Source of the DNA: Escherichia phage vB_EcoM-RPN242
Sequence record: OL656110.1
Length of the DNA: 64,000 bases
Strand: one strand, 5' to 3'
Positions within the stretch are counted from its first letter, which is position 1. Every line of letters starts with the position of its first letter. The notes below the pieces were generated by a model. It saw only the letters and a list, made by a program, of their open reading frames with translations, had not been told where the DNA came from and ran no database searches. Below are positions 7,336 to 34,872 of the stretch, piece after piece. The position numbers and the translations under genes are program-made.

Positions 7336-7363
7336 ACAAATAAAAACCCCGCCGAAGCGGGGT
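7336..7363 (-). terminator. rho-independent terminator after the capsid gene
   Basis: Minus strand: hairpin CCCCGCTTCGGCGGGG followed by TTTTTATTTGTT. Confidence 0.7.
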
Positions 7364-7390
7364 TTGTCAGGGTTAAGGACAACTATTCGA

Positions 7391-8713
7391 TTAGAAAAGT
7401 CCCTTAATTAACCCTTTGCGGAAATACACGTTGCTGTCCTTGGCGATACCATCCGCAGTCACATAGACCTGTGGATCCTGGTTCGCTGGGATCTGAACGA
7501 ATGGGTTAGCACAAATCCCGTAGCGGGTCTTGAATGCCATACGTGGTGCGAAGGTGGTTTCACCCTGGGTGCGGTACATTTCCAGCGGTACATACGGTGC
7601 GAAGAAGATACCAGCGTCCAGCGCGGTTGCGCCTTTGTATGCCAGGGTGATGTATTCTGCTACTGCATACGGGTCGATGTAGACACGCATACCGTTAGAC
7701 AGCACACCAGCGAAGGTCTGGCCAGTCGGATCAATCGCCAGCTTGGTGTTTTCCTGCAGCGCCGGAGCATAATCCAGCATGCCGGACATCGCCAGAGCGG
7801 ATGCTACGTTCGGAGAACACAGAACACGGTTGCCTTTACCACGACGGGTATCAACACCGATGCCGTTCGCTTCAACTTCCAGCATGAAAGTCATGTACTT
7901 CCATTTTTCCAGCGCCCAACGACCGGAGATGTCAGTGGAGATATCTACGATACCATTGGTGCCGAATTTTTTGAAGCGTACTGCGCTGAAGTTCATGGTG
8001 CGGATAAACTCACGGTTCATCTCTGCCTGAATTTCAGTTACCATCACGTCGGACAGGATGCTGTCAACGTCTTCGCCGTGGATCGCCATCATGTCCTGGC
8101 GCAGTTCGTGGCTGTAGTCAGCGTACAGGCCACGAGACTTCGCAGTCACGGTTGCTTTCTGAACGGTGATACCAACACGTGCCCATGGGTTGGTGGTGGT
8201 GCCCAGCAGTTCGGCGTCGGTAGTTGACATACCTTTACCGATGGTGGTAGCAGCGCCGGAACCTTCGATCTCAGTCTGGGAGAAGCCAGATGGGTCGCCA
8301 GCCTGTGCAGTGTCGTCACCAGAGTAGCCAGAATCAGCTTCCTGCATGAACAGTTCTTTACGGGAATGTTGGGTGTTGGAGCCGCCGTCTGAAATGCCCT
8401 GGCGAGCACGCAGTGCGAAGATCTGACCGTCAGGACCAGACAACGGCTGAACGCCGAAGAAGTCCATCGCGATGTTGACCGGAGCCAGACGTTTGGCCAT
8501 GTCGATCAGGACTGGCTGCCATTTGCCCACAGAGGCGTTCACGGAGCCAGGAGCGTCAGATTCGCCCAGGTTTTTGGCGTTCCACTCAGCCTGGTTTTGC
8601 AGCAGACGGACGGCAACGTTTTCGGCAGAAAGCGGCTGGATGCTTTCAGATTCTTTCTGAAGAACTGGCAGCCACTGCTCGCGCATTTGTTCGGTAACAA
8701 GTTTCTTAGCCAT
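7391..8713 (-). CDS. major capsid protein (T4 gp23-like)
   Basis: 440 aa; follows scaffold, protease and portal in T4 order; ATG at 8713 has TAAGGAA upstream. Confidence 0.75.
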   Translation of the reverse strand: MAKKLVTEQMREQWLPVLQKESESIQPLSAENVAVRLLQNQAEWNAKNLGESDAPGSVNASVGKWQPVLIDMAKRLAPVNIAMDFFGVQPLSGPDGQIFALRARQGISDGGSNTQHSRKELFMQEADSGYSGDDTAQAGDPSGFSQTEIEGSGAATTIGKGMSTTDAELLGTTTNPWARVGITVQKATVTAKSRGLYADYSHELRQDMMAIHGEDVDSILSDVMVTEIQAEMNREFIRTMNFSAVRFKKFGTNGIVDISTDISGRWALEKWKYMTFMLEVEANGIGVDTRRGKGNRVLCSPNVASALAMSGMLDYAPALQENTKLAIDPTGQTFAGVLSNGMRVYIDPYAVAEYITLAYKGATALDAGIFFAPYVPLEMYRTQGETTFAPRMAFKTRYGICANPFVQIPANQDPQVYVTADGIAKDSNVYFRKGLIKGLF

Positions 8714-8804
8714 GATGGTCATTCCTTACATTGATATTCAGTTAAGTTGAAATTACTTAGTAGTTCAAAATCAAGCCCCCTTTCGAGGGCTGTGGCTGCT
8801 AAAA

Positions 8805-9656
8805 TTAGCCGTTGATGCCGAAGCGACGATTATAGTCGGCCAACTGACGCTTGATAGATTCTTTCAGCTCTTTGTCTGTTTCATCTTCATCGTCATCTTC
8901 ATCGCCTTCTTTCTTAGGCTTTTTGCCTTCGGCTTTAACATCTTTGTTGTCGTCATCGCCGTCTTTACCGCCGACTTTGTCCTGGAAGTCATCGTCATCG
9001 TCATCGCCTTCTTTCTTCACGGACTTACCTTCTACCAGGTTGCGGAAGGTGTGTACGCGGGAAGCGAATTCGCTTTCGGTGGTGAACTGCACAGCTTCCA
9101 GCAGATTGACAACCGTTGCTTTCTTGGTGTCGACCATACCTTCACAGATACGGGCGATCACAGAGTCACGCAGAGTCGCATTCGCGGCTTCTTTGATTTG
9201 ACGGTTTTCGCTTTCGGCAATCGCAGCACGTCGTTCTGCTTCGGTCAGGCGGGCAGTCAGCGCAGCGATCTGGCCGTTTTCGTCGGTGGCAAAGTTGATA
9301 CCAGCTTCTTTCAGAACACCAGTCAGGCCAGTCAGCAGATTTTCAGCCGCTTCACGTTTGATCTGAGCATCGATTCCAGGAGCGTTCTTGTTAGCCCACT
9401 CTTCTACAACAGCATTCAGGAAGCCATCGACTTTGGTCGCGATTTCCATCAAGTGAGACTCTTTCAGCTGAGCAATCTCAGCCTGATGAGCTTCAACCAG
9501 ACGCAGGCGCTCAATGTTGGCAGCGTTTTCGGTTTCTTGAATAGCGTTCAGGCGAGCGGCTTCTACTTTAGATTCCAGCAGACCAGACACTTTATCCAGG
9601 AAGTCGGTGCTGAGGCCGTTAACGCCCTCAAACAGTTTTTGCAATTCAGGTTTCAT
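8805..9656 (-). CDS. prohead scaffold protein (gp22-like)
   Basis: 283 aa, coiled-coil-like with a poly-acidic tract (DDDDDDFQDK...EGDEDDDEDE); positioned between protease and capsid. Confidence 0.7.
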   Translation of the reverse strand: MKPELQKLFEGVNGLSTDFLDKVSGLLESKVEAARLNAIQETENAANIERLRLVEAHQAEIAQLKESHLMEIATKVDGFLNAVVEEWANKNAPGIDAQIKREAAENLLTGLTGVLKEAGINFATDENGQIAALTARLTEAERRAAIAESENRQIKEAANATLRDSVIARICEGMVDTKKATVVNLLEAVQFTTESEFASRVHTFRNLVEGKSVKKEGDDDDDDFQDKVGGKDGDDDNKDVKAEGKKPKKEGDEDDDEDETDKELKESIKRQLADYNRRFGING

Positions 9657-9680
9657 GATTGTTTCCTTCTGAACGATTTT

Positions 9681-9690
9681 CAGTATTTAG
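9681..9690 (-). promoter_or_regulatory. late promoter motif CTAAATACTG upstream of scaffold gene
   Basis: CTAAATA about 25 nt upstream of ATG 9656; AAGGAAA ribosome-binding site. Confidence 0.45.
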
Positions 9691-9701
9691 TGAGGCTGAA
9701 T

Positions 9702-10370
9702 TCAGCCCAGATGTTTCAATGCGATATCGAGGCGGCGCAGGAAGTCGTCTTCTAACTGAATATTGGTTTTCACCAATGAATCGACCACATGCCCCTTAAT
9801 GTCCTTAGGAACCCAAATTCCTGAAGATTCATCAAGCTGCCATTCCACAGATTCGCTCACAGCCTTTACATAACAAACTTGTCCAGAAGGACGGTCGACT
9901 GCATCAACAGCAGTGAGCATAAAGCCGGGTTGAACGTCATCATAGCCGTTCACTGACTTGGTCTCACCAAGGCCACGTGTAGACACGGCCAGGTTGAAGT
10001 CTGCTTCAGCCAGAGCACGAATGATCTGACCTTTCGGTGTATTCAGGATCCGCGCTCGACCGATAGCGTTGGTGCCTTCCCAGCGCAAAGATTCGGTTTT
10101 GAGTGCAGCGTGTTCGATATCGGGGAAAGGATAATCCGGATGCTTGAGTTCACCGATTGCACGACGATCCTGGATATACTCTTTGTCGTATGCTTCGACA
10201 GCAGGGATACCCACCTTTTGGAGATCGTAGTTGCGACCATTACGGTTCACCTGGTTACACATCACGAATGGACCTTCGATGTACATGGCCTTGCCGCCAG
10301 TAGCCGTGGCCGCTTCACCAATCTGAAGATCTTTCCCTATCGCAGTGATCTCACGCAACAGTTTCATCAT
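9702..10370 (-). CDS. prohead protease (gp21-like)
   Basis: 222 aa; sits between prohead core genes and scaffold; AAGGAG upstream. Confidence 0.65.
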   Translation of the reverse strand: MMKLLREITAIGKDLQIGEAATATGGKAMYIEGPFVMCNQVNRNGRNYDLQKVGIPAVEAYDKEYIQDRRAIGELKHPDYPFPDIEHAALKTESLRWEGTNAIGRARILNTPKGQIIRALAEADFNLAVSTRGLGETKSVNGYDDVQPGFMLTAVDAVDRPSGQVCYVKAVSESVEWQLDESSGIWVPKDIKGHVVDSLVKTNIQLEDDFLRRLDIALKHLG

Positions 10371-10377
10371 TCGCTCC

Positions 10378-10683
10378 TTAACTCAGTCCCATCATACGAC
10401 GGAACTTCATTGCTTTTTTCTTACGACGCTCGATTTTGCGCTGGTATCCCATACCCATGCGTTTCTTGGCTCGGATCGCCTTGCGGTTGCCCAGCTTGCG
10501 AGTACGGCGCTCACTGGCGACCATCACCTCACAACGGGAACCATCCGCAGACAGTTTGAAACCAGGAGCACACTGAAGACGGCGACGGCGTTTGCCTTTT
10601 GCGTTCACCTTGTCAATGACTTTCTGCTCATCCATGCGGGAAGCCAGGAAATCAGCGAACGTTGCAACTTCTTCGATTTCCAT
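10378..10683 (-). CDS. highly basic small protein, likely prohead core/internal protein
   Basis: 101 aa rich in Arg/Lys (KGKRRRRL, RRKKKAMKFRR); AGAGGA upstream. Confidence 0.5.
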   Translation of the reverse strand: MEIEEVATFADFLASRMDEQKVIDKVNAKGKRRRRLQCAPGFKLSADGSRCEVMVASERRTRKLGNRKAIRAKKRMGMGYQRKIERRKKKAMKFRRMMGLS

Positions 10684-10695
10684 GATACATTCCTC

Positions 10696-10866
10696 TTACT
10701 GGTCGTCGCCGAAAGGACCCATGTCTTGGCTCAGGGAGTTCAAGACATATTCAGTACCCTGCTGGACCAGTTCTTGGGCGCGAGCGGACAGCTCCATTTC
10801 GCATTCAGCAGCAGCGGCATCAGTATCACCAGCGATGATTGCTTTTACCAGATCGATAGCGGCCAT
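10696..10866 (-). CDS. small acidic prohead core protein (gp67/68-position)
   Basis: 56 aa from ATG 10866 (MAAIDLVKAIIAGDTD...); track start is a GTG overlapping the portal gene. Confidence 0.4.
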   Translation of the reverse strand: MAAIDLVKAIIAGDTDAAAAECEMELSARAQELVQQGTEYVLNSLSQDMGPFGDDQ

Positions 10867-10903
10867 GTTCATATCCTCTAAATGTTTTCTATACTTAGTC
10901 GAA

Positions 10904-12598
10904 TTATTCTTCACCACCAGGAGGGTTAGTCGCTGGGATGACGTTAGGTCTGAATTTCAGTGGACTGACTTCCCCGCTGCCGAAGCCGCCGGACTCATCT
11001 GCCTGCACTTCAGGGTATTTGCCTTCTTTCTTCTCTTTCGCGATCTTCTCTTGCTGGTCTTTGATGTCTTCATCGGACATACGCAGCAAATTGCGTTGAG
11101 CAAAATCGATAGAGAAGAGAGTGCCGATATATGGTTCGATCTGACCGAGAGCCGCCATACGCTGTGACAAGATTTCGTTCTCTTGTTGTTCACGGATGAA
11201 GCTGTCAGAAGTGAATTCGAACTTGACGAACGGCTTGATCTTCTCATTCCAGTCAGCCTGATCTGTAATGCCTTTCAATATCAGTTGACGGCGCAGAAGT
11301 TCCAGGAAGATACCAGAAGAATAACGACGGCGCAGGCTCGCACAGAACTTGTTGAAGCGCAGTTCTTCCTGTGTGATTTCAGCAAGATTGGAACCACCGA
11401 TGTTGATGGAACCTTCCTCTTGCAGGCGGCTCTTAGGGATCATCAGAGCCTCGTAGAGCTTCTCGCGGAAGTATACCACATGATCCATTTGACCCAGTTG
11501 ATCGCCACCGCCTACGTTGGAGATCTCGGTTGCGTTCTGCCCTTCGCGACGTGGTAGCCAGTAGTCCTCAGCGATACCCATCAAATGAGTGTTACCAGCC
11601 ACCTTACCAGTGGTGCGATCATACGCCAGGCGGTTCTTGAATTTGCCCATCATGGCTTGCATGTATTCTTCGGCCGACTTCTTACCCAGCGTACCCACGT
11701 CGAGATAGAAAGCTCGCTTCTCAGGAGCACGTGTGATCGCATAGATCACCGTTGCATCTTCAGTTGTAACAAGGTTGTTCAGGGGACGGATAGCTGGGTT
11801 CAGCAGGCTTGGTACAACCCCATTCGCCAGAGGCTCTTCACCACTGTCCAGATACACTATGCTCTCATCATCAAACACCAGCTCTTGCTGTGACGGTTGG
11901 AAGTTCTGAGACGTACCGGACTGGCCAGTGAATTGGTTGCGGTTGTAGTTCGGGTTGTAGTAGTATTGAAGTTTTACGTCATTGATGACTTCGATACCGT
12001 CGCGCATCGCCTTTTGAACGATGTACACTGGGCGGATACAGCGTGAGTCCATCATGATGAGTTTGGCGATACCCGCTTTCTTGTTCTTCGGGTCCACTAC
12101 AACGTGGAATGCCTGACGGCCTTCAATATACCATTTGCGGATCTTCTGATACGCTGTGTTGTCAAAGTCAAGGAGATGCATGATCTCTTTGAATGCGTCA
12201 GTGATCTTCTCTTTGACTTCGTCTGTGATGCCATCTACCTTTTCCAGGTTGATGGTTACAGGAGTCTCTTCCTCTTCACAAGTGACGACGTCGTTGACAA
12301 TGATATCCACAGCCTTACGAATCTCAGGCTGCTGAGCCATAGACTGGTACTCTTCGACCAGCTGTTTGACGTTGAGCAACTCATTCTCAACACCAACGAA
12401 ATTGAATGTGTTCGCGCCGCCCTGGAGGATGATGGAACCATCCTGAGAATCGTCCAGCGCAACAACAGTCGCTTTTGAAAGCAACTTCTCTTCTTGGTTC
12501 GTGACCATCTTGTCGGTATCAATCGGCGCTTCTACTTTGCCGCCTCTGCCGAACAAGCCGAAGAACCCATTTCCGAATGCACCATTACCGAATGCCAT
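10904..12598 (-). CDS. portal protein (gp20-like)
   Basis: 564 aa; sits between tube and prohead core genes as in T4. Confidence 0.75.
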   Translation of the reverse strand: MAFGNGAFGNGFFGLFGRGGKVEAPIDTDKMVTNQEEKLLSKATVVALDDSQDGSIILQGGANTFNFVGVENELLNVKQLVEEYQSMAQQPEIRKAVDIIVNDVVTCEEEETPVTINLEKVDGITDEVKEKITDAFKEIMHLLDFDNTAYQKIRKWYIEGRQAFHVVVDPKNKKAGIAKLIMMDSRCIRPVYIVQKAMRDGIEVINDVKLQYYYNPNYNRNQFTGQSGTSQNFQPSQQELVFDDESIVYLDSGEEPLANGVVPSLLNPAIRPLNNLVTTEDATVIYAITRAPEKRAFYLDVGTLGKKSAEEYMQAMMGKFKNRLAYDRTTGKVAGNTHLMGIAEDYWLPRREGQNATEISNVGGGDQLGQMDHVVYFREKLYEALMIPKSRLQEEGSINIGGSNLAEITQEELRFNKFCASLRRRYSSGIFLELLRRQLILKGITDQADWNEKIKPFVKFEFTSDSFIREQQENEILSQRMAALGQIEPYIGTLFSIDFAQRNLLRMSDEDIKDQQEKIAKEKKEGKYPEVQADESGGFGSGEVSPLKFRPNVIPATNPPGGEE

Positions 12599-12663
12599 GA
12601 TTAAGTCCTCAACATTTTCTTGTAATTAGTGAGGGGGAATAAGATCCCCCAGCACTGAGGACA

Positions 12664-13197
12664 TTAGAGAGACTTGTCTGAGATGGCCTGGAAGTAACGC
12701 AGGTCAACAGTGAACTGAGTATAAGAGTCCATTGCAGACATGTCCAGTTCCAGCTGACCGAGGTTCTGAGGCCAGGCACCCTGAAGGGTCCAGGTCTTGG
12801 TGACGTTGTCATTCGCATCCAACAGTTCCATGATTACATCACGGAAATAATCATCTGGGTTAGCAGACGCACGGTTGTTGTTGCTGCCGTTGATATACTG
12901 CTGCCAGACTTCGAATGCGTTGTACGGGGCGTTGTCCACGACGTTGATGAACGTCACAGGCAGAGCCTCGAAGCGGCGGTCACCTGGGAATGGAAGTTCA
13001 CGACCACCCCATGGGACGAGTATTTCCCCGAGCTGGCCTGTTGGGGTATTTGTGGTCACCGCCAACAGCGAAACATCACGGATAGTATCGCTTCCAGCCA
13101 CGAAGGAAGGGAAGTTAACAGTCACACGCCAACGGTGTTGGCGCTGAACGCCACCCCCGCGTGACATAGCTGCTCTGAATTCATTAACTGTAGCCAT
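12664..13197 (-). CDS. tail tube protein (gp19-like)
   Basis: 177 aa; C-terminal GAWPQNLGQLELDMSAMDSYTQFTVDL resembles the T4 gp19 C-terminus. Confidence 0.75.
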   Translation of the reverse strand: MATVNEFRAAMSRGGGVQRQHRWRVTVNFPSFVAGSDTIRDVSLLAVTTNTPTGQLGEILVPWGGRELPFPGDRRFEALPVTFINVVDNAPYNAFEVWQQYINGSNNNRASANPDDYFRDVIMELLDANDNVTKTWTLQGAWPQNLGQLELDMSAMDSYTQFTVDLRYFQAISDKSL

Positions 13198-13217
13198 TAT
13201 AGATTCTCCAGAAAGAG

Positions 13218-13931
13218 TTACACAATTCTAATTAGCTGCCAACCCGTCGTGTTCAAACGCTCTGCGGTCGCAGTTTTCCTATGATACACAGACGGTGGTG
13301 GAACTGGAATACCCTTGTCGATGTAATCATAGAGTGCTGAATATTTAAGTCCCAACCTCTCCACGTATTCGCGACAATTCCCGTGGATTTCGTATTCTTC
13401 GCCGGATGGAGATACCAATTTGAATCGCTTGGCATGACCGTTGTTCTTGCCCTTTCTGATTCCAGTTTCAATGCATTTTCGACTAAATGATAATTTACCT
13501 TCTTCTTTCCATTCAACCCCGATCCGACAGCTAATGATTTCTCCTGTTTTCCACCGTGGATCATCGCAATCAACTAAACCGAGATGTTCACCAGTAGAAG
13601 TCAAAACTGCTCCGTGTTTATTGGAAAATGTGGACCCGTCTCCACCCCAGGTCTTGTTGTACCCTTTCTGAGTTGACATGTGGGTTCCGTGTTGCTTTAT
13701 AAGAATGATTTCCAATTCTTTTAGATCTTCCAGGGATTTGGTCTGGGCTAACACTTGAACAGAAAAGGACTCTTCTCCGTACTTTCTTATTGCTTGGTGA
13801 ATAAAGTAATCAGATCCCTTCTGAGCACTATTGCAGTGCTCCCACCACCTTTGCATAGGGTCTCTCGTCGTTATCCCAATATAGGCTTTCTGATTGACTA
13901 GATTTGTAATTTTGTAAACACTTCCGATCAT
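13218..13931 (-). CDS. GIY-YIG homing endonuclease, free-standing
   Basis: N-terminus VYKITNLVNQKAYIGIT...RWWEH is a GIY-YIG signature; inserted between sheath and tube. Confidence 0.8.
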   Translation of the reverse strand: MIGSVYKITNLVNQKAYIGITTRDPMQRWWEHCNSAQKGSDYFIHQAIRKYGEESFSVQVLAQTKSLEDLKELEIILIKQHGTHMSTQKGYNKTWGGDGSTFSNKHGAVLTSTGEHLGLVDCDDPRWKTGEIISCRIGVEWKEEGKLSFSRKCIETGIRKGKNNGHAKRFKLVSPSGEEYEIHGNCREYVERLGLKYSALYDYIDKGIPVPPPSVYHRKTATAERLNTTGWQLIRIV

Positions 13932-13987
13932 TTCGATGCTCTCTCAGTAAAATCGTTCCATTTTAACCCGCGAGAGACCATTGAAAT

Positions 13988-14003
13988 GCCCTCCGAAGAG
14001 GGC
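13988..14003 (-). terminator. hairpin after the sheath gene
   Basis: GCCCTCTTCGGAGGGC on the minus strand directly after the sheath stop; weak U-tract. Confidence 0.45.
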
Positions 14004-14013
14004 ATGGGGTAAA

Positions 14014-15909: not shown

Positions 15910-15947
15910 AATCTTATTCCTTCTCTGTAGAGTTTCGCTCAATTTGA

Positions 15948-15958
15948 AAGATATTTAG
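15948..15958 (-). promoter_or_regulatory. late promoter variant CTAAATATCTT
   Basis: Between terminase stop (15962) and sheath ATG (15909); GAGAAGG ribosome-binding site. Confidence 0.5.
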
Positions 15959-15961
15959 TGA

Positions 15962-18190: not shown

Positions 18191-18854
18191 TCGGCTCTGC
18201 CTGAACGTCGATTACATCTTCTTCGGGATCAGGTCCTTTGGGCGCAGCTTTCGCTGCAGCACGTTCTTCAGCACGTTTACGGGCGTCTTCGATGGTCTTC
18301 AGTAGATCACGGGAAGACCTGGCCTGTTTACCGACGTTGACCGTGGTTGTGCCATCAGGGGACGTGGTGACCTCGACGGTTGTTTCGTCTCCAGGAGGTG
18401 GCTCTCTGTCGCCCGTGACCGCCTTGATAGTTTTCTGGTTCTCCATCAGGTCTTTGTTCAGGCCGCGCATGAGTTCACCCAACTCTTTGAAGACTGTGAA
18501 GGCACGGGGTGCTTCAGTCGTCGTCGCGAGTTTGGCTGCCTGTCCCATCATGAACATCGTGGCTTCCTGCATGGCATAAGTCGTGTCACGGATGCGTTTG
18601 TAGTCGGTGGTGGCATCAGTGTCTTCGAAGTCTGGAACCTTAGACTCCTTGGGCTTCAGCTCTTCTGGGTCCAATGAAGGAGGAAACACCACAGGCTCAT
18701 ACCCCGCAGGCTTTTCACCCAACCATTCGCCTGTATCCGGATCGTAATTTTTTCCGGCCATAGGCGAGGTCTTCTCCATGACTTCTTGAGCGACCTCATC
18801 CCGCGCTTGGATAGCACTGAGGGTGGATAATAGGCGTTCTGACATAGCACTCAT
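18153..18854 (-). CDS. putative terminase small subunit (gp16 position)
   Basis: 233 aa directly upstream of and overlapping the large terminase gene; ATG at 18854. Confidence 0.45.
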   Translation of the reverse strand: MSAMSERLLSTLSAIQARDEVAQEVMEKTSPMAGKNYDPDTGEWLGEKPAGYEPVVFPPSLDPEELKPKESKVPDFEDTDATTDYKRIRDTTYAMQEATMFMMGQAAKLATTTEAPRAFTVFKELGELMRGLNKDLMENQKTIKAVTGDREPPPGDETTVEVTTSPDGTTTVNVGKQARSSRDLLKTIEDARKRAEERAAAKAAPKGPDPEEDVIDVQAEPNGEGEDDGVSEA

Positions 18855-18856
18855 AA

Positions 18857-19552: not shown

Positions 19553-19554
19553 GA

Positions 19555-20205: not shown

Positions 20206-20224
20206 ATCAATACCCTCAATTTTG

Positions 20225-20235: not shown

Positions 20236-20264
20236 TCGAAGTTTATTCTTTTGAGGAATAGCTC

Positions 20265-20477: not shown

Positions 20478-20478
20478 A

Positions 20479-26704: not shown

Positions 26705-26744
26705 TTTGATGCTCCATCGATAGGTGCCATTATAGAGATATTTA

Positions 26745-26755
26745 GTATACAACCA
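26745..26755 (-). promoter_or_regulatory. late promoter variant CTAAATATCTC
   Basis: About 40 nt upstream of ATG 26704. Confidence 0.5.
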
Positions 26756-27114
26756 ACCGAGGAATAGAAAGAAATAAGCCCGAAGGGGCTTTGATTATCT
26801 TTCTGTGGTTATGGTCATGGATTCAAGACCTCCGCATTCTTCAGGAACTATTGCAGGGGTGCTGGTACAGCCAGGGAATGGAGAACGCAAACAAGGCGAA
26901 CCAATGGAACCACAGTAGTAGGTTCAGATGCTAGTGTTAAGGTACAGGGTACAGACATTGCCAACAGAGATAACGTATTAGCCACTTACACACTTGGTTC
27001 GACAGACCCTTTCATGGTAGAAGGTATTCAATTGGGTATGTTTAATATCTCTGGGCAAGTAATCACCTTAACAGCAGTATCAATTAGGGTAATGCAAACA
27101 GTAAATTCTATATA

Positions 27115-27140
27115 AGAAAAGACCCCAAATGGGGTCTTAG
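27115..27140 (-). terminator. terminator hairpin AAGACCCCAAATGGGGTCTT after tailspike gene
   Basis: Minus strand: hairpin followed by TTTCTTATA. Confidence 0.6.
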
Positions 27141-27155
27141 TTTTACAGTTATAAG

Positions 27156-29381
27156 TCACGCTTCTGGCGAGGGGATAGTAAACCAATCGGACGCTGTTCC
27201 TGTTGTAGTGCCTTTATGCCTCCAGCCACTAACAGTTCTTTTTACCGTAGGGCTATCCTGCCAACCTGTTGCCGGGAGAAAGAAATTCCTCACTGGGGCG
27301 GGGTTTAACGCTCCAGTAGCTGGCGTGGCGGTTCCAGTCTGAGATGATACGAAGGTGGTTACTGTTGAGTAATCTATTACGTTATCATCATGAAACGCAT
27401 TCGTGTATAGATTTGCGGGTGCTGAGTTAACGAAGAATGCCGTAGTAACCCCGCTAACCTTGTTTCTATATACGTTGTTCCATCTACAGTTACCACCAAG
27501 GCGTATACCCTCAGAATCAGAAGCCCCCGCAATGGTGTTACTATCTATGTCACAATATTGGAAACTTTGAGCTACTAAAAACCGGCAACTATTACGCGTA
27601 ACCCTGCCGTAAGTAGACGTACCATTGGCATAGTAAACTGTTATATTGCCAGATGTTAAACAGTCTTTAATCGAGAAATTGGTCATAGGGCTAGTAAGGT
27701 ATACACTGCCAGTACCTTTCACTGTAATGTTTATATTTTTTCTAACTGTCAGGGTGTATGCGGGCGCGCTATACATACTGACTATATACCCGTTCGCCCC
27801 TGTATTTACAGGGACATTTGCATCCACTGTCACATAATCACAGTCCTTAATTAATATCGCAGCGGTTGTTTGAGCGCCAGTCTTTACGAATCTAATAGAC
27901 GGGTTTGTGATGGTAAAGTTCTGGCATTGCTCCATAAAGATAACGCCTGATACTTGATCGTCTGCCGCCAGCGAGTCTACAACAATACGCTGAGCACCAA
28001 ATGCCCCCATAACCCCATACTTTCCGCCTTTAATATAATCAGCATGGGTGTTGCAGTCGAAGCATTTTGCACCAAAATATATACCTCCGTTGTTGGCCGT
28101 AGGTTTTAGGGTGTTATGGGATGTACGGATGTTACGGCAGCCAGCATAAGATATTATTTGCGCATCCCCACCGGTCCCTCCAATGTGGGTCGTACCTGTA
28201 ACAGTACAATCTGTAGATCCGTAACCAAAAAATATATTACCATTTCCGACACGCCCGGTATGGGTAGTGTTGTGGTACACCACACCGTACGCGTTATCAT
28301 GCCTTGAACCGCCATTTCCATTATAATCAAAAACAGTACCATGGAACTCTATAAGCGAAGCCCCCACAGATTGGTACATGTAGCTAGACCCTGACGCAGA
28401 ATTTTTTAAGATTCCCCCGATGAACTTAGTAGCGTTGCCTTTTATAAGATAAATAACCGAATTGGTGGTAGTTAGGTCCCACGGTAAAGCCGTTGCTAAA
28501 TTTACGGTAGCACCTGATATGGACGAGATTAAAAAAGATTCGCCTTGGTATCCGGTTACATCCGGATTCTGTGCGTTGGCAATATACCAAGCGTCACTTG
28601 TGTCCTCAGTGCGTATTACCAACGCCCGAGTATACCCAGTTCCTGCCACCTCAGATGTTAATGTGATGGACGTTGCTCCGGAAGCCGCAGGGGAAAGCAA
28701 GCTGAATTGGCTCTCGCTGACGAAATTAAGAGCATTAGCGGTCAATGATGTCAACCCAGCACCGTGACCGAAAGTAAAAATCGTACCTTTTGGTATGTTG
28801 ACTTGTGAATGGGAAATTGTCATGCCCGGAGGAACAAAAACATTCCCCGAGTTAATGGCTAACTGTAAACTAGATGCCTCATCAGACCCATCACCGACAA
28901 CCCCAAAAGCACGCACGTCCCGTAAATTAGGATCTGTCTGCGGCTTCCAGTCAGCGTTACCAACTGGGTTAGTTCCTGCGACAATAGTTACAGGTAAGGA
29001 ACCTAAGTAGGTGTAACCTATGCCATTATAAAATAGTAATTCATTTCTAGTATTCACAACTAAACCAGTAGCAAACGAGTCGGATAGGTTCACGAACTCT
29101 CTACGTGTAGCAGCCAGTTCCCCCAAATCAACTGTGCCTGCGGAATGAACCAGGACTGCATGTTTATTGAGGCTTACGGCAGTGGTTCCTACTGGAAGTA
29201 CAGGTAATGAGTAAGCACGTTGGGTAGACTTGTCATAGATTACTTTGTAGCCACCCAAGTCCACTCCCACAGCAAAGTAGACTACTTCATTTTGCTTAAC
29301 ACCAAACTTACGAGCAATGGCTTGCTTATTGGTAAGAATACCAGTAGAGCCTTTACCGCCTTGTGAGAACATTTCGTTCAT
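27156..29381 (-). CDS. tailspike protein (741 aa)
   Basis: N-terminal module (KQAIARKFGVKQNEVVYF...YKVIYDKSTQRAYSLP...VDLGELA) is shared with the other tailspike genes. Confidence 0.7.
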   Translation of the reverse strand: MNEMFSQGGKGSTGILTNKQAIARKFGVKQNEVVYFAVGVDLGGYKVIYDKSTQRAYSLPVLPVGTTAVSLNKHAVLVHSAGTVDLGELAATRREFVNLSDSFATGLVVNTRNELLFYNGIGYTYLGSLPVTIVAGTNPVGNADWKPQTDPNLRDVRAFGVVGDGSDEASSLQLAINSGNVFVPPGMTISHSQVNIPKGTIFTFGHGAGLTSLTANALNFVSESQFSLLSPAASGATSITLTSEVAGTGYTRALVIRTEDTSDAWYIANAQNPDVTGYQGESFLISSISGATVNLATALPWDLTTTNSVIYLIKGNATKFIGGILKNSASGSSYMYQSVGASLIEFHGTVFDYNGNGGSRHDNAYGVVYHNTTHTGRVGNGNIFFGYGSTDCTVTGTTHIGGTGGDAQIISYAGCRNIRTSHNTLKPTANNGGIYFGAKCFDCNTHADYIKGGKYGVMGAFGAQRIVVDSLAADDQVSGVIFMEQCQNFTITNPSIRFVKTGAQTTAAILIKDCDYVTVDANVPVNTGANGYIVSMYSAPAYTLTVRKNINITVKGTGSVYLTSPMTNFSIKDCLTSGNITVYYANGTSTYGRVTRNSCRFLVAQSFQYCDIDSNTIAGASDSEGIRLGGNCRWNNVYRNKVSGVTTAFFVNSAPANLYTNAFHDDNVIDYSTVTTFVSSQTGTATPATGALNPAPVRNFFLPATGWQDSPTVKRTVSGWRHKGTTTGTASDWFTIPSPEA

Positions 29382-29669
29382 AATGACCTCTTTGTTTTTC
29401 TAAGTAAGCCTCCCAACGTGGGGAGGCATGTAAGTAAAGTTATTTACCGATTCTCAATTCAGCTAACCAACCTAGAATTTGTTTATTGATTCTAGACGGG
29501 TAAGCAGCCTCTAACCATGCACATCGGTCTGGTATTAAACCTCACCTTGAACCAGCAGGAGTAACAAATTCTTTCCATCCTTTCTGTAGAACTCAGGTAT
29601 ACGCTTCTTTAATACCATTATTACCAACAATACTTGCATACACAACAGACACTAAACTCTATATAAGAA

Positions 29670-29688
29670 AAGGTCCCGAATGGGACCT
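29670..29688 (-). terminator. terminator hairpin AGGTCCCGAATGGGACCT
   Basis: Just past gene end 29700; minus strand followed by TTTCTTATAT. Confidence 0.55.
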
Positions 29689-29699
29689 TTATAATAAAA

Positions 29700-32108
29700 T
29701 TAAGGGCTAACCCGATACCACCCGTCGTAGCTAATATACAAACGTTTACCGGACACAACTGCATCAATGCGAAGCGTTTTTTCACCTTCAGTAAAGAACG
29801 CTCCTCCAGTGTTCCCGATGTTCATTCGAAAGCTGGCTGGAATATTTCCAGAGGTAAAACCGATGTCCCCGTTGTTCACCCCTGTTACTGCTATGTATGC
29901 GTAATCCCGCGCGACAGGAAATCCTGTCACAGATATGAACTGACTGGTGCCGGAACTCCATTCAATTGTCACATCAAACACACCGAATATATGAGCAAAA
30001 TCTCCGACATAATTTATGTTATGTACGGTATACTCGCCGTATGATATCACCGCATTGGTGCCTGATTGAACTGTAATTTCAGGCGAACCGGGGTCATTCG
30101 CTAAGAAAGTACGGTCTGGTCTGATTTTGGCGGATGAATTCGCCACCGTTCTGGTAACGTTGTTGAGCCAACCGGCCTCCACCGGATCCCCATTTCGCGT
30201 AGACCTTACAATGTTGTTACGCAATATTGCGTTAAAAAACGTAATATCGGAGATGTAAATATTATGGTGCTGCCCGGCTACGGCCCCGCCAAACAACATC
30301 CCATTAGAGTTGTACTCATAAGATACGTTGTTCTCAATGATGCTGTTGCGCGCCACTCCATTTAATTCTAGCCATGATATGTTAGACGGGCCTGTGTAAT
30401 CAGAACCAAGTCTAATACTGGTGTTATTGGTGAATGAGCTATGGTCGAAATTATCCAATCTCCAGTTAATACCCAGAGTGCCTTCTTGACCATTCCCAGT
30501 TACCGTTACCCCTAGCAGGTTCTGTAATATATAGCCATAACACACTCTTGTCCTGTCCGGATAATAGTCGTTCCTGTTAGTGTGATCACAGGCATTAGCC
30601 TCTATAACAGAGTATTTAAGATCCCGATAGCAATGCCCATAATCACGGCAACTATTACTATAGTTAGTAGATATTACGCATGAAGTGCCGTTGTTTATAA
30701 ATATCCCACCGAGACATGCGGTAACGCGGTTGTTTCCTACTCGCGACGCAAATACAACAGGGAGAATTAGCCCATACTTGCAATCGTAAATATAGACGTC
30801 TTCTATCGTGGCGTCGGATACCACGCCTGCATTTACGATACCAAATTCTACCGCGTGGTTTTCCGTTGTAGTTTTTGTCCCATGCAGAGTAACCCCTGTG
30901 ATGACACCGGACCATCTTGAACTACTAGAATCCCCTAAACAAATAACCGCATTCATATCTGTAGGCAGGGTTCCGGTATATCCTCCAGATAGTGCAGGCG
31001 CCGTCACCAGAACTGTAACGGTAGTGGATGTCGTTTTCGTTATAGTAACTGATTCGCGACTTCTCCCTATTACTGATACATTCGATGGTAGAGCAAGAGT
31101 ACTGCTTATTTTATAGTTACCATCCGGGAAATAAACCACGCCTTTTGTGGTGCTGGCATAAGCTATAGCTGCTTTTATAGCTACCGTATCATCAGTAGCT
31201 CCGTCACCAACAGCACCAAAATCTTTAACGTTATAGTAGTCTTTAAAATGGCTATCAATGGTTCGCTTAATTGCAGAAGAAACACCAGATAAGCCAGAAT
31301 TTACTAATGTTCCCCCATCAGTAACCATAGCCGTTTTATATACCTGCAACTCATTCTCCACTGGAGTTACATCATTGGGTGCAGGGAGCAGGTCAACAAC
31401 AATCCCACCAGGATTGTATGTTAGTTGGTCACCATTAACGGAAGAAATATATACGTTAGTAGGCAATGTAGGCAACCCATATGCCTTCTGCTCACTAACA
31501 GAATAAATAATCTTCTTACCATTGAGGGACTGAGTAGTATCGGTGCTAAGAATTACTTCACTATCTTTAACGTTAGTAGCACGAGCGATTTCTTGAATAC
31601 TTCGGTCAAACAACGGACTGATATTCGGTTGTTTAACAGACATTTCAGCGACTACCCAAACGCCTGCTGTCAGCGCAGTTTGTAAAGACACTTTCCCTGT
31701 CGTGCTGTCATAGGAATATTCAATTTCGGGTGTTTTGTACTCACCACCGATATAAAGAGATTGGACTCCATAAGATGTGTAATCAGGAGTGAACTCGGTT
31801 TCACCTCCTATAGCCTGAAACTTATAGATTCGAATCCCAGTTTTATAATCTTCTGGAGACAGAATCTTATCAAACAGACAGAACACAACGTCACCTTTGG
31901 ATAATGCGCGTCCGAGATTTAACGTATTTCCATCGATTTCAAAGTTGTCTAACGGAACTTGCATACCACCGTTGATTGTGACTATACCAGTGACAGGGTA
32001 GAAAGGGAGGGAGATAAACTTCTCTCCGCCCGTTGCTGTGTAAGTGTATGGAATCTGGTGCGGAGCTGTTACGACCGCTCCAAAGATGCTCTCGACGTTT
32101 CTGGTCAT
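29700..32108 (-). CDS. tailspike protein (about 802 aa)
   Basis: ATG at 32108 follows GGGGTATTTTCAA; shares the module IARATNVKDSEVIL...KKIIYSVSEQKAYGLP with the others. Confidence 0.7.
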   Translation of the reverse strand: MTRNVESIFGAVVTAPHQIPYTYTATGGEKFISLPFYPVTGIVTINGGMQVPLDNFEIDGNTLNLGRALSKGDVVFCLFDKILSPEDYKTGIRIYKFQAIGGETEFTPDYTSYGVQSLYIGGEYKTPEIEYSYDSTTGKVSLQTALTAGVWVVAEMSVKQPNISPLFDRSIQEIARATNVKDSEVILSTDTTQSLNGKKIIYSVSEQKAYGLPTLPTNVYISSVNGDQLTYNPGGIVVDLLPAPNDVTPVENELQVYKTAMVTDGGTLVNSGLSGVSSAIKRTIDSHFKDYYNVKDFGAVGDGATDDTVAIKAAIAYASTTKGVVYFPDGNYKISSTLALPSNVSVIGRSRESVTITKTTSTTVTVLVTAPALSGGYTGTLPTDMNAVICLGDSSSSRWSGVITGVTLHGTKTTTENHAVEFGIVNAGVVSDATIEDVYIYDCKYGLILPVVFASRVGNNRVTACLGGIFINNGTSCVISTNYSNSCRDYGHCYRDLKYSVIEANACDHTNRNDYYPDRTRVCYGYILQNLLGVTVTGNGQEGTLGINWRLDNFDHSSFTNNTSIRLGSDYTGPSNISWLELNGVARNSIIENNVSYEYNSNGMLFGGAVAGQHHNIYISDITFFNAILRNNIVRSTRNGDPVEAGWLNNVTRTVANSSAKIRPDRTFLANDPGSPEITVQSGTNAVISYGEYTVHNINYVGDFAHIFGVFDVTIEWSSGTSQFISVTGFPVARDYAYIAVTGVNNGDIGFTSGNIPASFRMNIGNTGGAFFTEGEKTLRIDAVVSGKRLYISYDGWYRVSP

Positions 32109-32140
32109 TTGAAAATACCCCATAAAGGATTTGCCAATAT

Positions 32141-32151
32141 GGGGTATTTAG
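32141..32151 (-). promoter_or_regulatory. late promoter CTAAATACCCC with inverted repeat
   Basis: CTAAATACCCCATATTGGCAAATCCTTTATGGGGTATTTTCAA-ATG; 12-bp arms. Confidence 0.6.
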
Positions 32152-32185
32152 TCTGAACTAATAAATTTATAAACAAATGTATAGA

Positions 32186-32220
32186 GAAACCCCGCCGAAG
32201 CGGGGCTAGTTTTTATTTGT
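32186..32220. terminator. hairpin CCCCGCCGAAGCGGGG with T-run on the plus side
   Basis: Same hairpin core as at 7347 and 34851; located just past the end of 32227..34776. Confidence 0.55.
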
Positions 32221-32226
32221 GGTGTG

Positions 32227-34776
32227 TCAATTGAGTTTTGATATCTCTACAGTTATACCGAATACGTTATTCGGTCTACTTGTGGTTGTAGCTATAGTTA
32301 GCTCAAAGAAATGCGCGTTTATATCTGGTGACTGTGTGTATCCCGCAGAATTAGTTAATGTTACATTGAGTGATATGTCCGAATCTGTTACGCCGTTTAT
32401 GCGAATTTCATTCACAGGTCCTGATAGCGACGCGGCGGAAGTTGCACCTATCTTATGATTTACCAGGTACGTCTTCTCAATATAAGCAACGGATCCCCCA
32501 TTATTATATGAAGAGCACGACTTAACTTTTACCAGTAGGTTTTGCGATTCTAATGTTCCATAGTTATCAAAAATCTTTAAAACTTTGTTAGCAGATGCAC
32601 CAGAAATGCTTCCACAGTTCACTTCCCATAATGTAGTTCTATTCGCATTCGGTGCGTTCTCATACATGTAGAAACTACCATCTGGAATTACCCTGTTGTT
32701 TATTAATGTTTTCAGATTTCCGCAGTTACCTATTAGTCTCACGTGGGCATTGATGTTTGTTAATGTTACTGTTTTTATTTTTGATTCTGTGTTTGCGCAC
32801 CTAATAGAACCACCCATGCAGTTAATATTTTCGTAATAGACATTACCAGCTTGCCACGGTAACGCGAAAATATCGTCCGCCCGGTTTTTATAATTGAGCG
32901 CAACATTAGCAGCAATCCAGTCTCGGTGCATAGAAGAATCACCAGTAAATGTGACGATACCTATTTGAGGGTCTTCTGCTGGGGTTGTGCCCAAACTGGC
33001 AACTATATTGATATCTGTCAGCTCACCACCAAGACATCTTATATTTGGCATATCATATTCTTCGGTGGCAAATACGTTACGCCATTTAGCATCAAAACCA
33101 GCGTGCGAGTCCATCGTGGCGAAGTTATTATAACCGAAGCACTTTTTAACCTCGAACTTGTTGAACCATGTTGTTGGGGAGGCAGCATGTCTACAGAATG
33201 ATGCTGTGATGCTATCAACAACTGTATCGTAAGTGCCCGCCGCAGGGCTGATAGGATACTGACACCTATTAGCAACTACATTGCCAATCCTTGGCATATA
33301 GCAAGCTATTAATAAGTACGAGGAACCACCACTGGTTTCCACGTCACCAGAAAAGACTGGCATATAAAAACCACGGAACCATGAAGATGAAACCCCAAAT
33401 GATGCGGTGCCTATATTAACAAAAGATGAGTTATCACGGTTGTTAAAGTGCTCCATCTTGAAGTTATTGAAAATCAACCTTACCGGTTTGTACCTGTTAA
33501 CCTTAACGTTGTTTGCTACTAGATGATCGAATAGCGCTGGCCTATCAACTTTCATATTAGAACCAGATTCACGCTCTGCAATAAACAACTCCCTTGAGTT
33601 AAAATTCCACTGAGTCTCGTACGTCTTGTTGTCCTCTATATAAATCAAATCACCCTCTACAGCCCCAGCCACCCGCGCAACTGTGGAGCCGCTTACCATA
33701 TCAGCTAGAAGTGAAGACTGAATCTCGGTTGATGACAGGTGCATTTCCACCCCATCAGAGGCCCCGAACAGCTTTATGCCAGACCAATCAACAACTAAGT
33801 TTTTATCAATCGACAATAGTTCTATATTACTGGTTACAGTAACCTCACCGACTGACCTGAAGTATCCACGGCACCCGGATGTGTAAGCTACAGTCAGGAA
33901 TTCAGATATAGTCTGGCCTGATACAGACCCTCCAGCGGTTATGCCGAAATCATCTCCGCAAATCGCGCTTATAGGGGTAAATGATGTTAATGCCGGCTGG
34001 GAAGCAGACCTGACCCACATTGTACCGCCGGTTGAGCATACCGAATCTACAGGTAACTCTGCCTCCGTGGACGCAATCATCTCGTAAAAAGAGGAGAAAT
34101 GTTTGTATATTCCAGCAACTTTGTAACCACCAGTTATAGGATTAGTCCCAGCGACAACTATACCAGCAGGACCGGAGAACGCCTTACCAGTGCGTTCTTG
34201 TAGTAGCACATCGTTGGCGTTCACTAGTGTACCGCCCGACTCAAAGCTACCATCTACTAGATTATAGCCTGCTGTTGCATAGCTACGGCGCAACGCCTCA
34301 CGGGTCTGTGTACTTGTGAACTGATTGGAGCACCTAATATAACCACTCCCTGGAAGAGTAGGGTCTGTGCCAGCAGGAACTACTTTAGGTAATGCCCCAT
34401 CCCAACGGTACTTCCCATCTGTAAAGACAACTAATTCATTCTTGGTATTAACTGTTACACCGGTATCAAATGACCCAGACAATGTGACGTACTCTTCACG
34501 AGATACAGCCAATTCCCCGAGATCTACAGAACCTGCTGAATGTACCAGGATTGCCTGTTCGTTCAGACTTATCGCAGTCGTTCCTGAAACAATACCTGAA
34601 GGAAGAGAATAAGCCCGTTGGGTAGACTCATCATAAATTACTTTAAATCCACTGAGATCAATACCAGCAGTGAAATAAATGACTTCGTCTTCTTTGACAC
34701 CGAAATTTCGAGCGATAGATTGTTTGTTAACTTCTATGGAAGTGGAGCCGCGTGGTTGATTGAATTGAGAAATCAT
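32227..34776 (-). CDS. tailspike protein (849 aa)
   Basis: Shared N-terminal module; contains a 160-bp segment nearly identical to one in the next gene. Confidence 0.7.
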   Translation of the reverse strand: MISQFNQPRGSTSIEVNKQSIARNFGVKEDEVIYFTAGIDLSGFKVIYDESTQRAYSLPSGIVSGTTAISLNEQAILVHSAGSVDLGELAVSREEYVTLSGSFDTGVTVNTKNELVVFTDGKYRWDGALPKVVPAGTDPTLPGSGYIRCSNQFTSTQTREALRRSYATAGYNLVDGSFESGGTLVNANDVLLQERTGKAFSGPAGIVVAGTNPITGGYKVAGIYKHFSSFYEMIASTEAELPVDSVCSTGGTMWVRSASQPALTSFTPISAICGDDFGITAGGSVSGQTISEFLTVAYTSGCRGYFRSVGEVTVTSNIELLSIDKNLVVDWSGIKLFGASDGVEMHLSSTEIQSSLLADMVSGSTVARVAGAVEGDLIYIEDNKTYETQWNFNSRELFIAERESGSNMKVDRPALFDHLVANNVKVNRYKPVRLIFNNFKMEHFNNRDNSSFVNIGTASFGVSSSWFRGFYMPVFSGDVETSGGSSYLLIACYMPRIGNVVANRCQYPISPAAGTYDTVVDSITASFCRHAASPTTWFNKFEVKKCFGYNNFATMDSHAGFDAKWRNVFATEEYDMPNIRCLGGELTDINIVASLGTTPAEDPQIGIVTFTGDSSMHRDWIAANVALNYKNRADDIFALPWQAGNVYYENINCMGGSIRCANTESKIKTVTLTNINAHVRLIGNCGNLKTLINNRVIPDGSFYMYENAPNANRTTLWEVNCGSISGASANKVLKIFDNYGTLESQNLLVKVKSCSSYNNGGSVAYIEKTYLVNHKIGATSAASLSGPVNEIRINGVTDSDISLNVTLTNSAGYTQSPDINAHFFELTIATTTSRPNNVFGITVEISKLN

Positions 34777-34802
34777 GATAATACCCCAAGAATGACCAAT
34801 AT

Positions 34803-34813
34803 GGGGTATTTAG
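34803..34813 (-). promoter_or_regulatory. late promoter CTAAATACCCC with inverted repeat
   Basis: CTAAATACCCCATATTGGTCATTCTTGGGGTATTATC-ATG. Confidence 0.6.
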
Positions 34814-34848
34814 TCTGAACTAATAAATTTATGAACAAAGTTATAATA

Positions 34849-34872
34849 AGAACCCCGCCGAAGCGGGGTTTA
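34849..34872. terminator. hairpin CCCCGCCGAAGCGGGG
   Basis: Third copy of this hairpin core; just past gene end 34876. Confidence 0.55.

Follow-up and report, generated by a model that had tools for sequence, protein, structure and literature searches.

Introduction

T4-like phages exchange genes at composite elements that hold a terminator and a promoter (PMC4122927), and modular shuffling in these phages is mediated by promoter-early stem loops (PeSLs; Arbiol et al. 2010, PMC2839356; Comeau et al. 2014, PMC4122927). Here we analyze a 16-nt hairpin that occurs three times in a window of 64,000 nucleotides from Escherichia phage vB_EcoM-RPN242 (record OL656110.1; the window is the whole stretch of DNA analyzed, numbered from its first letter), once after the major capsid gene and twice after tailspike genes. 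We consider it probable that the three copies are generic terminators, that at the tailspike genes they belong to a cassette for late expression, and that there they mark the crossovers of exchanged modules.

This tailspike cassette resembles the PeSLs in that a terminator and a promoter share one short, repeated and conserved intergenic unit, and in that breakpoints of sequence similarity fall on the element. It differs from them in that the promoter is of the late type CTAAATA and not an early sigma-70 promoter, in that the flanking genes encode structural receptor-binding proteins and not small accessory open reading frames (ORFs) in hyperplastic regions, and in that the exchange partners include other phage families, recombination being read here from sequence breakpoints. 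We suggest that the cassette would work like a PeSL without being one by definition.

As single elements, the hairpins compare with canonical intrinsic terminators of the Escherichia coli and T4 type, with which they have in common a GC-rich stem of 6–9 bp, a UUCG loop of 4 nt, a U-rich tail on the gene strand and a site just past the stop codon. T4 terminators have been described in the same terms (PMC2988022). Unlike the canonical elements, the two tailspike copies have interrupted U-tracts, and all three are known from sequence only. T4 provides two further precedents: the weak mobE terminator stops ~30% of transcripts while a promoter just downstream drives nrdB, and segD lies among terminators between genes 23 and 24 (PMC2988022), much as a homing endonuclease gene follows the capsid terminator here. 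In the T4 genes e, soc, 49 and I-TevI, the ribosome site is hidden by a hairpin that has a late promoter in its 5' strand, a design in which only transcripts begun at that promoter are translated well (PMC3014915, PMC2988022). The hairpins of this kind (also segB, and mobE of Aeh1) have the same arm layout as those described below; unlike in T4, the upstream read-through transcripts are here themselves late and the motif is CTAAATACCCC instead of TATAAATA.

Exchange of tailspikes in the Ackermannviridae is well described (Sorensen et al., PMC10791037; review PMC11721090), and as in our data receptor-binding domains are swapped between genes, between genera and between unrelated phages. A conserved region upstream of the beta-helix has been proposed as a crossover site (PMC10791037). 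Terminators, promoters and intergenic regions have 0 occurrences each in the two papers, and a 3' crossover at a terminator hairpin is, in contrast to them, described here only.

Results

An exact scan of the window for CCCCGCCGAAGCGGGG gives three matches, at 7347–7362, 32190–32205 and 34853–34868, all read on the plus strand, where 0.02 are expected by chance and none of 100 shuffles gave three or more. Allowing up to two mismatches adds no match in the window, and the relaxed pattern CCCGCNNNNGCGGG, with the same stem and any loop, returns the same three sites only. An earlier note made from the letters alone, here called the sequence-only reading, had reported these three hairpins, and its 34851–34870 is the 34853–34868 hairpin with two extra A-U pairs. 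The hairpins and the genes that they follow or precede are:

7391–8722, minus strand: gp23-type major capsid gene (Pfam Gp23, PF07068, E = 5.1e-124), upstream of the first hairpin
7336–7365, minus strand: capsid terminator, predicted; RNA AAACCCCGC-UUCG-GCGGGGUUU then UUAUUUG, with a 9-bp stem and a strong U-tract
34876–38037/38067, minus strand: tailspike gene TSP4 (1063-amino-acid (aa) ORF for 34876–38067)
34853–34868, minus strand: TSP4 terminator hairpin, predicted; gene-strand tail UUCUUAUUAU, an interrupted U-tract; upstream TAA-CAATAAA
32227–34776, minus strand: tailspike gene TSP3 (849 aa; ATG at 34776)
32190–32205, minus strand: TSP3 terminator hairpin, predicted; gene-strand tail UUUCUCUAUA; upstream flank AAATAAAAACTAG, from an imported module
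29700–32108/32123, minus strand: tailspike gene TSP2
27156–29381, minus strand: tailspike gene TSP1

The tailspike genes are thus met in the order TSP4, TSP3, TSP2, TSP1, and Pfam finds a Tail_spike_N domain in two of the four. The window is Agtrevirus-like (family Ackermannviridae, subfamily Aglimvirinae); its capsid region is 96–98% identical to Escherichia phages YX22, LHE287, ZQ1 and AV101, and its tailspike region 97–98.6% identical to PC3 and PH4 across most of its length.

The three copies have one polarity. The 16-mer is not its own reverse complement (loop CGAA on the plus strand, UUCG on the minus strand), the long ORFs that border the hairpins lie on the minus strand throughout, and the RNA of the gene strand is CCCCGC-UUCG-GCGGGG at every site, downstream of a minus-strand gene end and 28 nt (capsid), 21 nt (TSP3) or 7 nt (TSP4) past the stop codon. 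Moreover, the capsid copy AATAAAAACCCCGCCGAAGCGGGGTTT and the 34853 copy AATAAGAACCCCGCCGAAGCGGGGTTT match in the same orientation at 26 of 27 bases, flanks included (repeat family D3), and the similarity of the copies ends at the A-tract and the U-tract. The sequence-only reading had described the flanks as oppositely oriented, which these comparisons contradict.

The core hairpin has a folding energy of -12.0 kcal/mol on the gene strand and -11.1 kcal/mol on the other, and folds of the gene strand in context reach -15.3 to -17.1 kcal/mol (z = -3.2 to -4.5). All three sites have a stem of six G-C pairs with A-U or G-U extensions and a UUCG loop, which on the gene strand forms the extra-stable cUUCGg tetraloop. 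The U-tract is clear at the capsid copy (TTTTTATT, 7 T in 8) and weak at the tailspike copies (TTTCTCTA with 5 in 8 after TSP3, TTCTTATT with 6 in 8 after TSP4), and all three pass a terminator scan, or nearly do. We scored both strands by a distance-weighted T-tail and by a discriminant d of the d'Aubenton-Carafa type, in which the ViennaRNA energies make the values approximate:

Capsid hairpin, 7347: d = 43.7 on the minus (gene) strand, 2.5 on the plus strand
TSP3–TSP2 hairpin, 32190: d = 14.1 on the minus (gene) strand, -23.5 on the plus strand
TSP4–TSP3 hairpin, 34853: d = 11.6 on the minus (gene) strand, 16.9 on the plus strand

The U-tract after the capsid gene lies on the gene strand (TTTTTATTT), as the sequence-only reading had it. 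Its further claim, of a plus-strand T-run that is the stronger one at both tailspike copies, is not borne out in that form. A plus-strand run of five T is present at 32190 (in 32206–32219), but it scores poorly because it begins 4 nt from the stem (CTAGTTTTTATTTG), and the tail scores are 1.45 on the plus and 3.22 on the minus strand. At 34853 the two sides are about equal in tail score (3.67 plus, 3.09 minus), with a somewhat higher d and a longer stem in the plus-strand RNA (-22.6 vs -15.3 kcal/mol). The plus-strand T-runs are the complement of the A-rich 3' tails, stop codon plus A-tract, of imported modules; at 34853 the run is the complement of the TSP4 stop and its 7-nt A-rich spacer (CATCA-TAA-CAATAAA). 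Convergent transcription units with a U-tract on both strands, the hallmark of a bidirectional terminator, are found at none of the three 16-mers. On this evidence, the three 16-mers are, by prediction, ordinary Rho-independent terminators oriented for minus-strand late transcripts, and the tailspike copies are predicted to be weaker than the capsid copy.

Similarity to other phages breaks at the two tailspike hairpins. Two modules end on them:

34851–36684, minus strand: TSP4 receptor-binding module with stop codon, A-rich tail and hairpin, 95.8% identical to a tail protein gene of Gamaleyavirus nithesis (Schitoviridae)
32189–34122, minus strand: TSP3 receptor-binding module with 3' tail and hairpin, 90.2% identical to a gene of Phapecoctavirus AV126

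In alignment, the likeness to nithesis, in which the loop of the homologous hairpin is TTAG, stops past the 34853 hairpin and the Ackermannviridae cassette of YX22, CECAV_050 and CBA120 matches instead, while upstream of this hairpin these three are unrelated to the window. The AV126 match runs through the tail CACACCACAAATAAAAACTAG and the hairpin and stops at the last base of the hairpin. Because this match includes the flank, the odd upstream flank of the 32190 copy, with its displaced A-tract, came with the imported module. Similarity to the Kuttervirus cassette starts at 32206–32217, and at the other junction cassette similarity reaches 34868–34880. The suggestion of modular exchange at the tailspike locus, made in the sequence-only reading, is thus well supported: similarity to nithesis and AV126 ends, and that to the Ackermannviridae cassette begins, at the hairpins.

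On their 5' side the modules have their edges within, or shortly past, the conserved Tail_spike_N region (repeat family D1, 93% identical between TSP3 and TSP4), which is the crossover region proposed earlier (PMC10791037). At the TSP3–TSP2 junction, PC3 and A221 have two terminator hairpins ~130 nt apart; the window has one, with the upstream flank of the first and a downstream flank of the cassette type, as expected from recombination between the two hairpins.

Between the two hairpins of PC3 (9925–10199) and A221 (8091–8535) lies a conserved small ORF, M(V/G)NEPDNVTLARLEERLRNIFENQNPA..., which runs into the second hairpin; this segment is absent from the window.

The intergenic stretches 34777–34875 and 32124–32226 are paralogous (repeat family D7, 94% identical over 50 nt, plus the hairpin). 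Both hold the same cassette:

34777–34875, minus strand: TSP4–TSP3 cassette with hairpin, weak U-tract, spacer TTTGTTCATAAATTTATTAGTTCAGA, CTAAATACCCC (34803–34813), putative promoter/ribosome-site hairpin (34780–34810) and ATG at 34776
32109–32226, minus strand: TSP3–TSP2 cassette with CTAAATACCCC at 32141–32151, putative promoter/ribosome-site hairpin at 32113–32149 and likely start ATG at 32108

As a 99-nt unit, the cassette is present in 185 phage records at 355 places, mostly in Kuttervirus and at two places in most of the records listed. Read on the gene strand, it consists of a stop codon, an A-rich tail, the hairpin, TTCTTATTATA(C/A)C and TTTGTTCATAAATTT(T)ATTAGTTCAGA, followed by CTAAATACCCC, ATATTGG..., ATGGGGTAT, 4–9 nt and an ATG. 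The hairpin is found in 19 of 21 unique copies (loop TTCG in eight, TTTG in eight, another loop in three), and the U-rich tail is TTCTTATTAT in 12 of these 19 and TTTTTATTAT in three. The two copies without it, in YX22 and in one Kuttervirus, break inside the cassette. Within cassettes the terminator stem is almost invariant, compensated stems being seen only across different junctions or in deeper relatives, and the record of the Kuttervirus Mutine annotates the cassette hairpin as a terminator.

The second part of the cassette points to a late promoter. CTAAATACCCC is enriched in the window, with eight sites against 0.48 expected. The form CTAAATAcCcc is said to go back to a Viunalikevirus paper. 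Two regulatory motifs are given for these phages in PMC7283392, and CTAAATAcCcc is one of them. In the LIMEstone1 record, (C)TAAATA boxes ahead of late structural genes bear the annotation of putative late promoter. A relative, phiSboM-AG3, has homologs of gp55, gp33 and gp45 and has been scanned for T4-type late promoters TATAAATA (PMC3121705). In the cassettes no -35/-10 pair scored. The identification as a promoter is thus a candidate one, based on the enrichment of the motif, the LIMEstone1 annotation and the listing in PMC7283392.

CTAAATACCCC forms the 5' arm of a hairpin, the 3' arm of which, GGGGTAT(TT), is the likely Shine-Dalgarno sequence and spacer before the start codon; a late -10-like element and a likely ribosome site thus occupy opposite arms. 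Of 26 unique contexts taken from all loci, 22 have GGGGTAT no more than 47 nt past TAAATACCCC and then a start codon within a further 14 nt. Predicted stabilities range from -13 to -24.5 kcal/mol, and pairs beyond the invariant part co-vary (CCCCAT/ATGGGG, CCCCTA/TAGGGG, CCCCCAT/ATGGGGG). Besides the two in the cassettes given above, this arrangement occurs elsewhere in the window. It is the T4 e/soc/I-TevI layout, apparently in wide use for late genes here. The putative promoter/ribosome-site hairpins are:

38040–38081, minus strand: ahead of TSP4, with CTAAATACCCC at 38071–38081 and likely start ATG at 38037
34780–34813, minus strand: ahead of TSP3
32113–32151, minus strand: ahead of TSP2
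~3355–3394, minus strand: further example
47671–47707, plus strand: further example

No terminator hairpin accompanies the one ahead of TSP4 at 38040–38081.

The first in-frame ATGs of TSP4 (38067) and TSP2 (32123) lie inside these hairpins. Several relatives annotate the downstream ATG (ATGGCT..., ATGACC...; 38037 and 32108 here), which has a GGGGT ribosome site at proper spacing, and PC3 annotates the upstream ATG for TSP2. The GenBank record of Mutine labels the promoter/ribosome-site hairpin 'terminator'.

The capsid copy could be followed in 22 Ackermannviridae capsid loci from IMG/VR. In all of them a hairpin lies at a short, variable distance past the capsid stop codon and is followed by a T-tract, within a 3' untranslated region that varies. 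The stem is CCCCGC/GCGGGG in 21 of the 22, and the most distant locus has the compensated GCCCTC/GAGGGC. The loops vary:

Capsid-site loops (n = 22): TTCG in 10, including the locus with the compensated stem; CATGT or CATAT in 8; TCCG in 2; CGAA in 2

Capsid genes of more distant T4-like phages also end in UUCG hairpins, with other stems. LIMEstone1 has the identical sequence AAACCCCGCTTCGGCGGGGTTTTTATTTGTTCAT at this site, and a feature of 29 nt, annotated in its record as 'putative factor-independent terminator', overlaps the hairpin or adjoins it. We conclude that the capsid copy is, by prediction from sequence conservation, the canonical strong terminator of the most abundant late transcript.

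In LIMEstone1 the annotated terminator feature lies ~30 nt downstream of the actual 29-nt hairpin and T-tract (2669–2697 vs 2699–2727), probably through a slip in the annotation coordinates. In phages bering and Se-J, ~30 nt past the stop of the capsid gene, the loop has become its own reverse complement (CGAA in place of TTCG) with stem and flanks unchanged relative to close relatives. This looks like an inversion of the hairpin loop, and the polarity of the core can thus flip in the Ackermannviridae, though not in the window.

The 16-mer itself is generic. It occurs exactly in at least 120 IMG/VR contigs of widely differing size and source, near-identical 27-mers are present in unrelated contigs, and among the IMG/VR matches listed 91 of 125 occurrences have T at six or more of the eight positions that follow the hairpin in its UUCG orientation, upstream A-tracts being far less regular. 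A 36-nt query of the hairpin with flanks matched 2221 phage records, which span many host genera and in several cases annotate the match as a terminator. The core is also identical to that of the designed 'forward transcriptional terminator BBa_B1002', cgcaaaaaaCCCCGCTTCGGCGGGGttttttcgc (10.1101/624551), and is found in primers in PMC8233975. Two sites that agree in the 16-mer, and even in A3 and T-rich flanks, therefore give little evidence of copying. Across the whole window, Rfam at gathering thresholds found two tRNAs only and no RNA family on the hairpins or cassettes.

The other two tailspike genes end in hairpins of different sequence:

29669–29690, minus strand: TSP2 terminator hairpin, predicted; AAAGGUCCC-AUUC-GGGACCUUU then UCUUAUAUAG (repeat family D6; d = 19.2)
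27119–27138, both strands: TSP1 terminator hairpin, predicted; common to the converging plus-strand phrog_17779 relic (26841–27115)

Of a plus-strand phrog_17779 gene, the 403-nt region after TSP1 retains the C-terminal 40%, with no start codon. This block and the receptor-binding part of TSP1 are 95.5% identical to Gamaleyavirus nithesis, in which the gene is intact (208 aa) and the homolog of the 27119–27138 hairpin stands between two intact convergent genes; the arrangement of a bidirectional terminator is seen there only.

A 57-nt repeat after TSP2 (29646–29702) keeps the last six codons of phrog_17779 and a compensated hairpin. The TSP2–TSP1 spacer (29382–29699) measures 318 nt, compared with 47–57 nt and a single hairpin in relatives, and contains a second hairpin, GCCTCCC-CACGT-TGGGAGGC, just before the TSP1 ribosome site; ~235 nt separate it from the 29669–29690 hairpin.

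Downstream of the capsid terminator lies one further gene:

5814–7286, minus strand: free-standing homing endonuclease gene (phrog_3339, E = 2.5e-156), homolog of F-LimVII of LIMEstone1

Its real start is the ATG at 7286, and the TTG-extended ORF to 7382 is spurious. Nearby, a direct repeat of 44 nt (91% identical; 5503–5546 and 5763–5806) holds the inverted repeat GGGGC...GCCCC. A plus-strand gene of phrog_3832 (function not known, E = 1e-94) lies at ~1989–2630 among minus-strand structural genes, beside the tail tube gene, a position comparable to that of the opposite-strand homing endonuclease described in LIMEstone1. The two tRNA genes (44865–44938 and 45194–45279, plus strand) stand at the switch from minus-strand to plus-strand genes.

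Discussion

Our analysis points to a model whereby a late transcript that leaves TSP4 or TSP3 would meet a stable hairpin with an interrupted U-tract (UUCUUAUUAU), at which part of the transcripts would terminate and part would read through, and a late promoter 45–50 nt further on would start the transcript of the next tailspike gene. Partial termination followed by re-initiation at a local late promoter is the function that we infer for the cassette from its sequence. If the T4 design holds, translation of read-through RNA would be poor. Every tailspike gene would then have a promoter and leader of its own for its expression, almost the same from gene to gene, and would be a self-contained expression unit. 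At the capsid gene, the copy with the tail UUUUUAUUU would close the highly expressed gp23 transcript and would be held by purifying selection across the Ackermannviridae. As for exchange, the hairpin would be the only sequence common to the 3' edge of exchangeable modules across unrelated phages, and the 5' crossover would take place in or near the conserved Tail_spike_N region. Unrelated phages also have the hairpin after their receptor-binding genes, and it therefore marks the crossover point and probably acts as that point.

Several observations weigh against this model. The U-tracts of the tailspike copies are poor and interrupted, with 5–6 T in 8, and the homologous hairpin of AV126 is without any T-tract, so the hairpin may not terminate in some contexts. 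A search of the literature gave no RNA-seq, Term-seq or start-site map from the Ackermannviridae; copy number, polarity, conservation and the positions of breakpoints are observed, and termination strength, promoter use and the mechanism of recombination are predictions. The ends of BLAST segments in nine genomes do favor it, falling within 12 nt of the two tailspike hairpins in 20 of 130 cases, against 0.77 expected, but this number is descriptive only, as ends from related genomes are not independent and the P value of the enrichment overstates the evidence. The hairpins moreover adjoin stop codons, where variable coding sequence stops and ends would cluster anyway. Finally, ~20 bases after the 32190 hairpin differ from PC3 and A221, leaving the fusion of two hairpins an incomplete account of this junction.

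Other explanations were weighed. The tailspike hairpins, chiefly that at 34853, might have been selected as bidirectional terminators that also block antisense transcription. The 34853 copy does score on both strands and has its longer stem on the plus strand, and an A4–6 tract abuts the stem in most Kuttervirus copies. An upstream A-tract is, however, normal for one-way terminators such as BBa_B1002, and at 32190 the plus strand does not score as a terminator. Nor is there to the left any plus-strand gene or evident promoter from which antisense transcripts would come; the nearest credible plus-strand coding sequences are the relic at 26.8–27.1 kb and the gene at ~2.0–2.6 kb. We therefore consider this explanation unlikely.

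It is similarly improbable that the tailspike hairpins barely terminate and instead protect or process 3' ends on a polycistronic late tailspike mRNA, or are mere passengers of the modules. The interrupted U-tracts and the AV126 homolog without a T-tract would fit such a role, as would the two cassette copies that keep the promoter part without the hairpin. Yet the d scores of the gene strand are positive, the cassette tails are conserved (TTCTTATTAT or TTTTTATTAT in most hairpin-bearing copies), some variants have compensating changes in the stem (CCCCGC/GCGGGG vs CCCCTC/GAGGGG), and all four tailspike genes, here and in related loci, end in a GC hairpin with a T-rich tail although their stems differ.

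Recent copying or gene conversion between the capsid and tailspike terminators of this genome would explain why the 16-mers are identical and why the capsid and 34853 copies agree so closely in their flanks. Similarity stops, however, at the A-tract and the U-tract, and the near-identical 27-mers of unrelated contigs show the same likeness outside this genome. The match of the 34853 copy with its upstream flank is to nithesis and that of the 32190 copy to AV126, which speaks for separate histories, and within bering, Se-J and STML-13-1 the capsid loop (CGAA or CATGT) differs from the tailspike loop (TTTG), which speaks for independent change. We regard gene conversion as very unlikely and rejected it on the difference in loops between sites within single relatives.

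The sequence-only reading had proposed a terminator cassette copied in inverted orientation, or terminators left over from an earlier arrangement in which they ended plus-strand genes. Some observations agree with it: the run of five T on the plus strand near 32190, the slightly better plus-strand tail at 34853, and the loop inversion in the capsid terminators of bering and Se-J, which is real (CGAA on the gene strand, flanks unchanged). In addition, a true converging plus-strand relic does adjoin the neighboring 27119–27138 hairpin, and in YX22 the same 16-mer, with a T-tract to either side, separates TSP3 from such a relic. In the window, on the other hand, the asymmetric loop has the same polarity relative to the genes at all copies, the flanks of the capsid and 34853 copies are co-oriented, and the T5 run at 32206, 4 nt off the stem, gives d = -23.5. 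The T-runs are accounted for by the end of the minus-strand gene upstream, with its stop codon and A-rich tail; nithesis and AV126 have the same tails, and neither 32190 nor 34853 is abutted by a plus-strand ORF or relic. The idea of a leftover fits the 27119–27138 hairpin only, none of the three 16-mers having a plus-strand gene or relic beside it, and for these both versions are most unlikely; copying in inverted orientation we reject. A mobile palindrome of the REP or MITE type was rejected, with three copies in 64 kb, no flanks conserved past the A/T tracts and more than 100 unrelated contigs that carry the sequence.

We return to terminators that open a late cassette and mark module crossovers. 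It is tempting to speculate, although we hold this only tentatively, that an ideal hairpin combined with a late promoter makes a portable junction, a late counterpart of the PeSLs. Receptor-binding genes of Ackermannviridae, Schitoviridae (Gamaleyavirus) and Phapecoctavirus end in almost the same hairpin of 16–22 nt, which might provide microhomology for a 3' crossover when host-range modules pass between phage families; the cassette might then restore expression, and the ribosome-site hairpin within the promoter might allow only local transcripts to be translated.

As terminators the hairpins are routine; their role as a boundary and the promoter/ribosome-site hairpin are modestly new details. 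With the latter, the unexplained 'CTAAATAcCcc' motif can be read as a late promoter that pairs with the ribosome-binding site. Host range in the Ackermannviridae is set by four swappable tailspike genes, which phage engineers already exchange by homologous recombination. As read from the alignments, the 3' boundary of every natural exchange examined appears to be a terminator hairpin that opens a conserved cassette of terminator, late promoter and ribosome site. The hairpin with its cassette would thus be a natural, expression-neutral design boundary for tailspike swaps, and it suggests a route by which modules may pass between phage families without other shared sequence.

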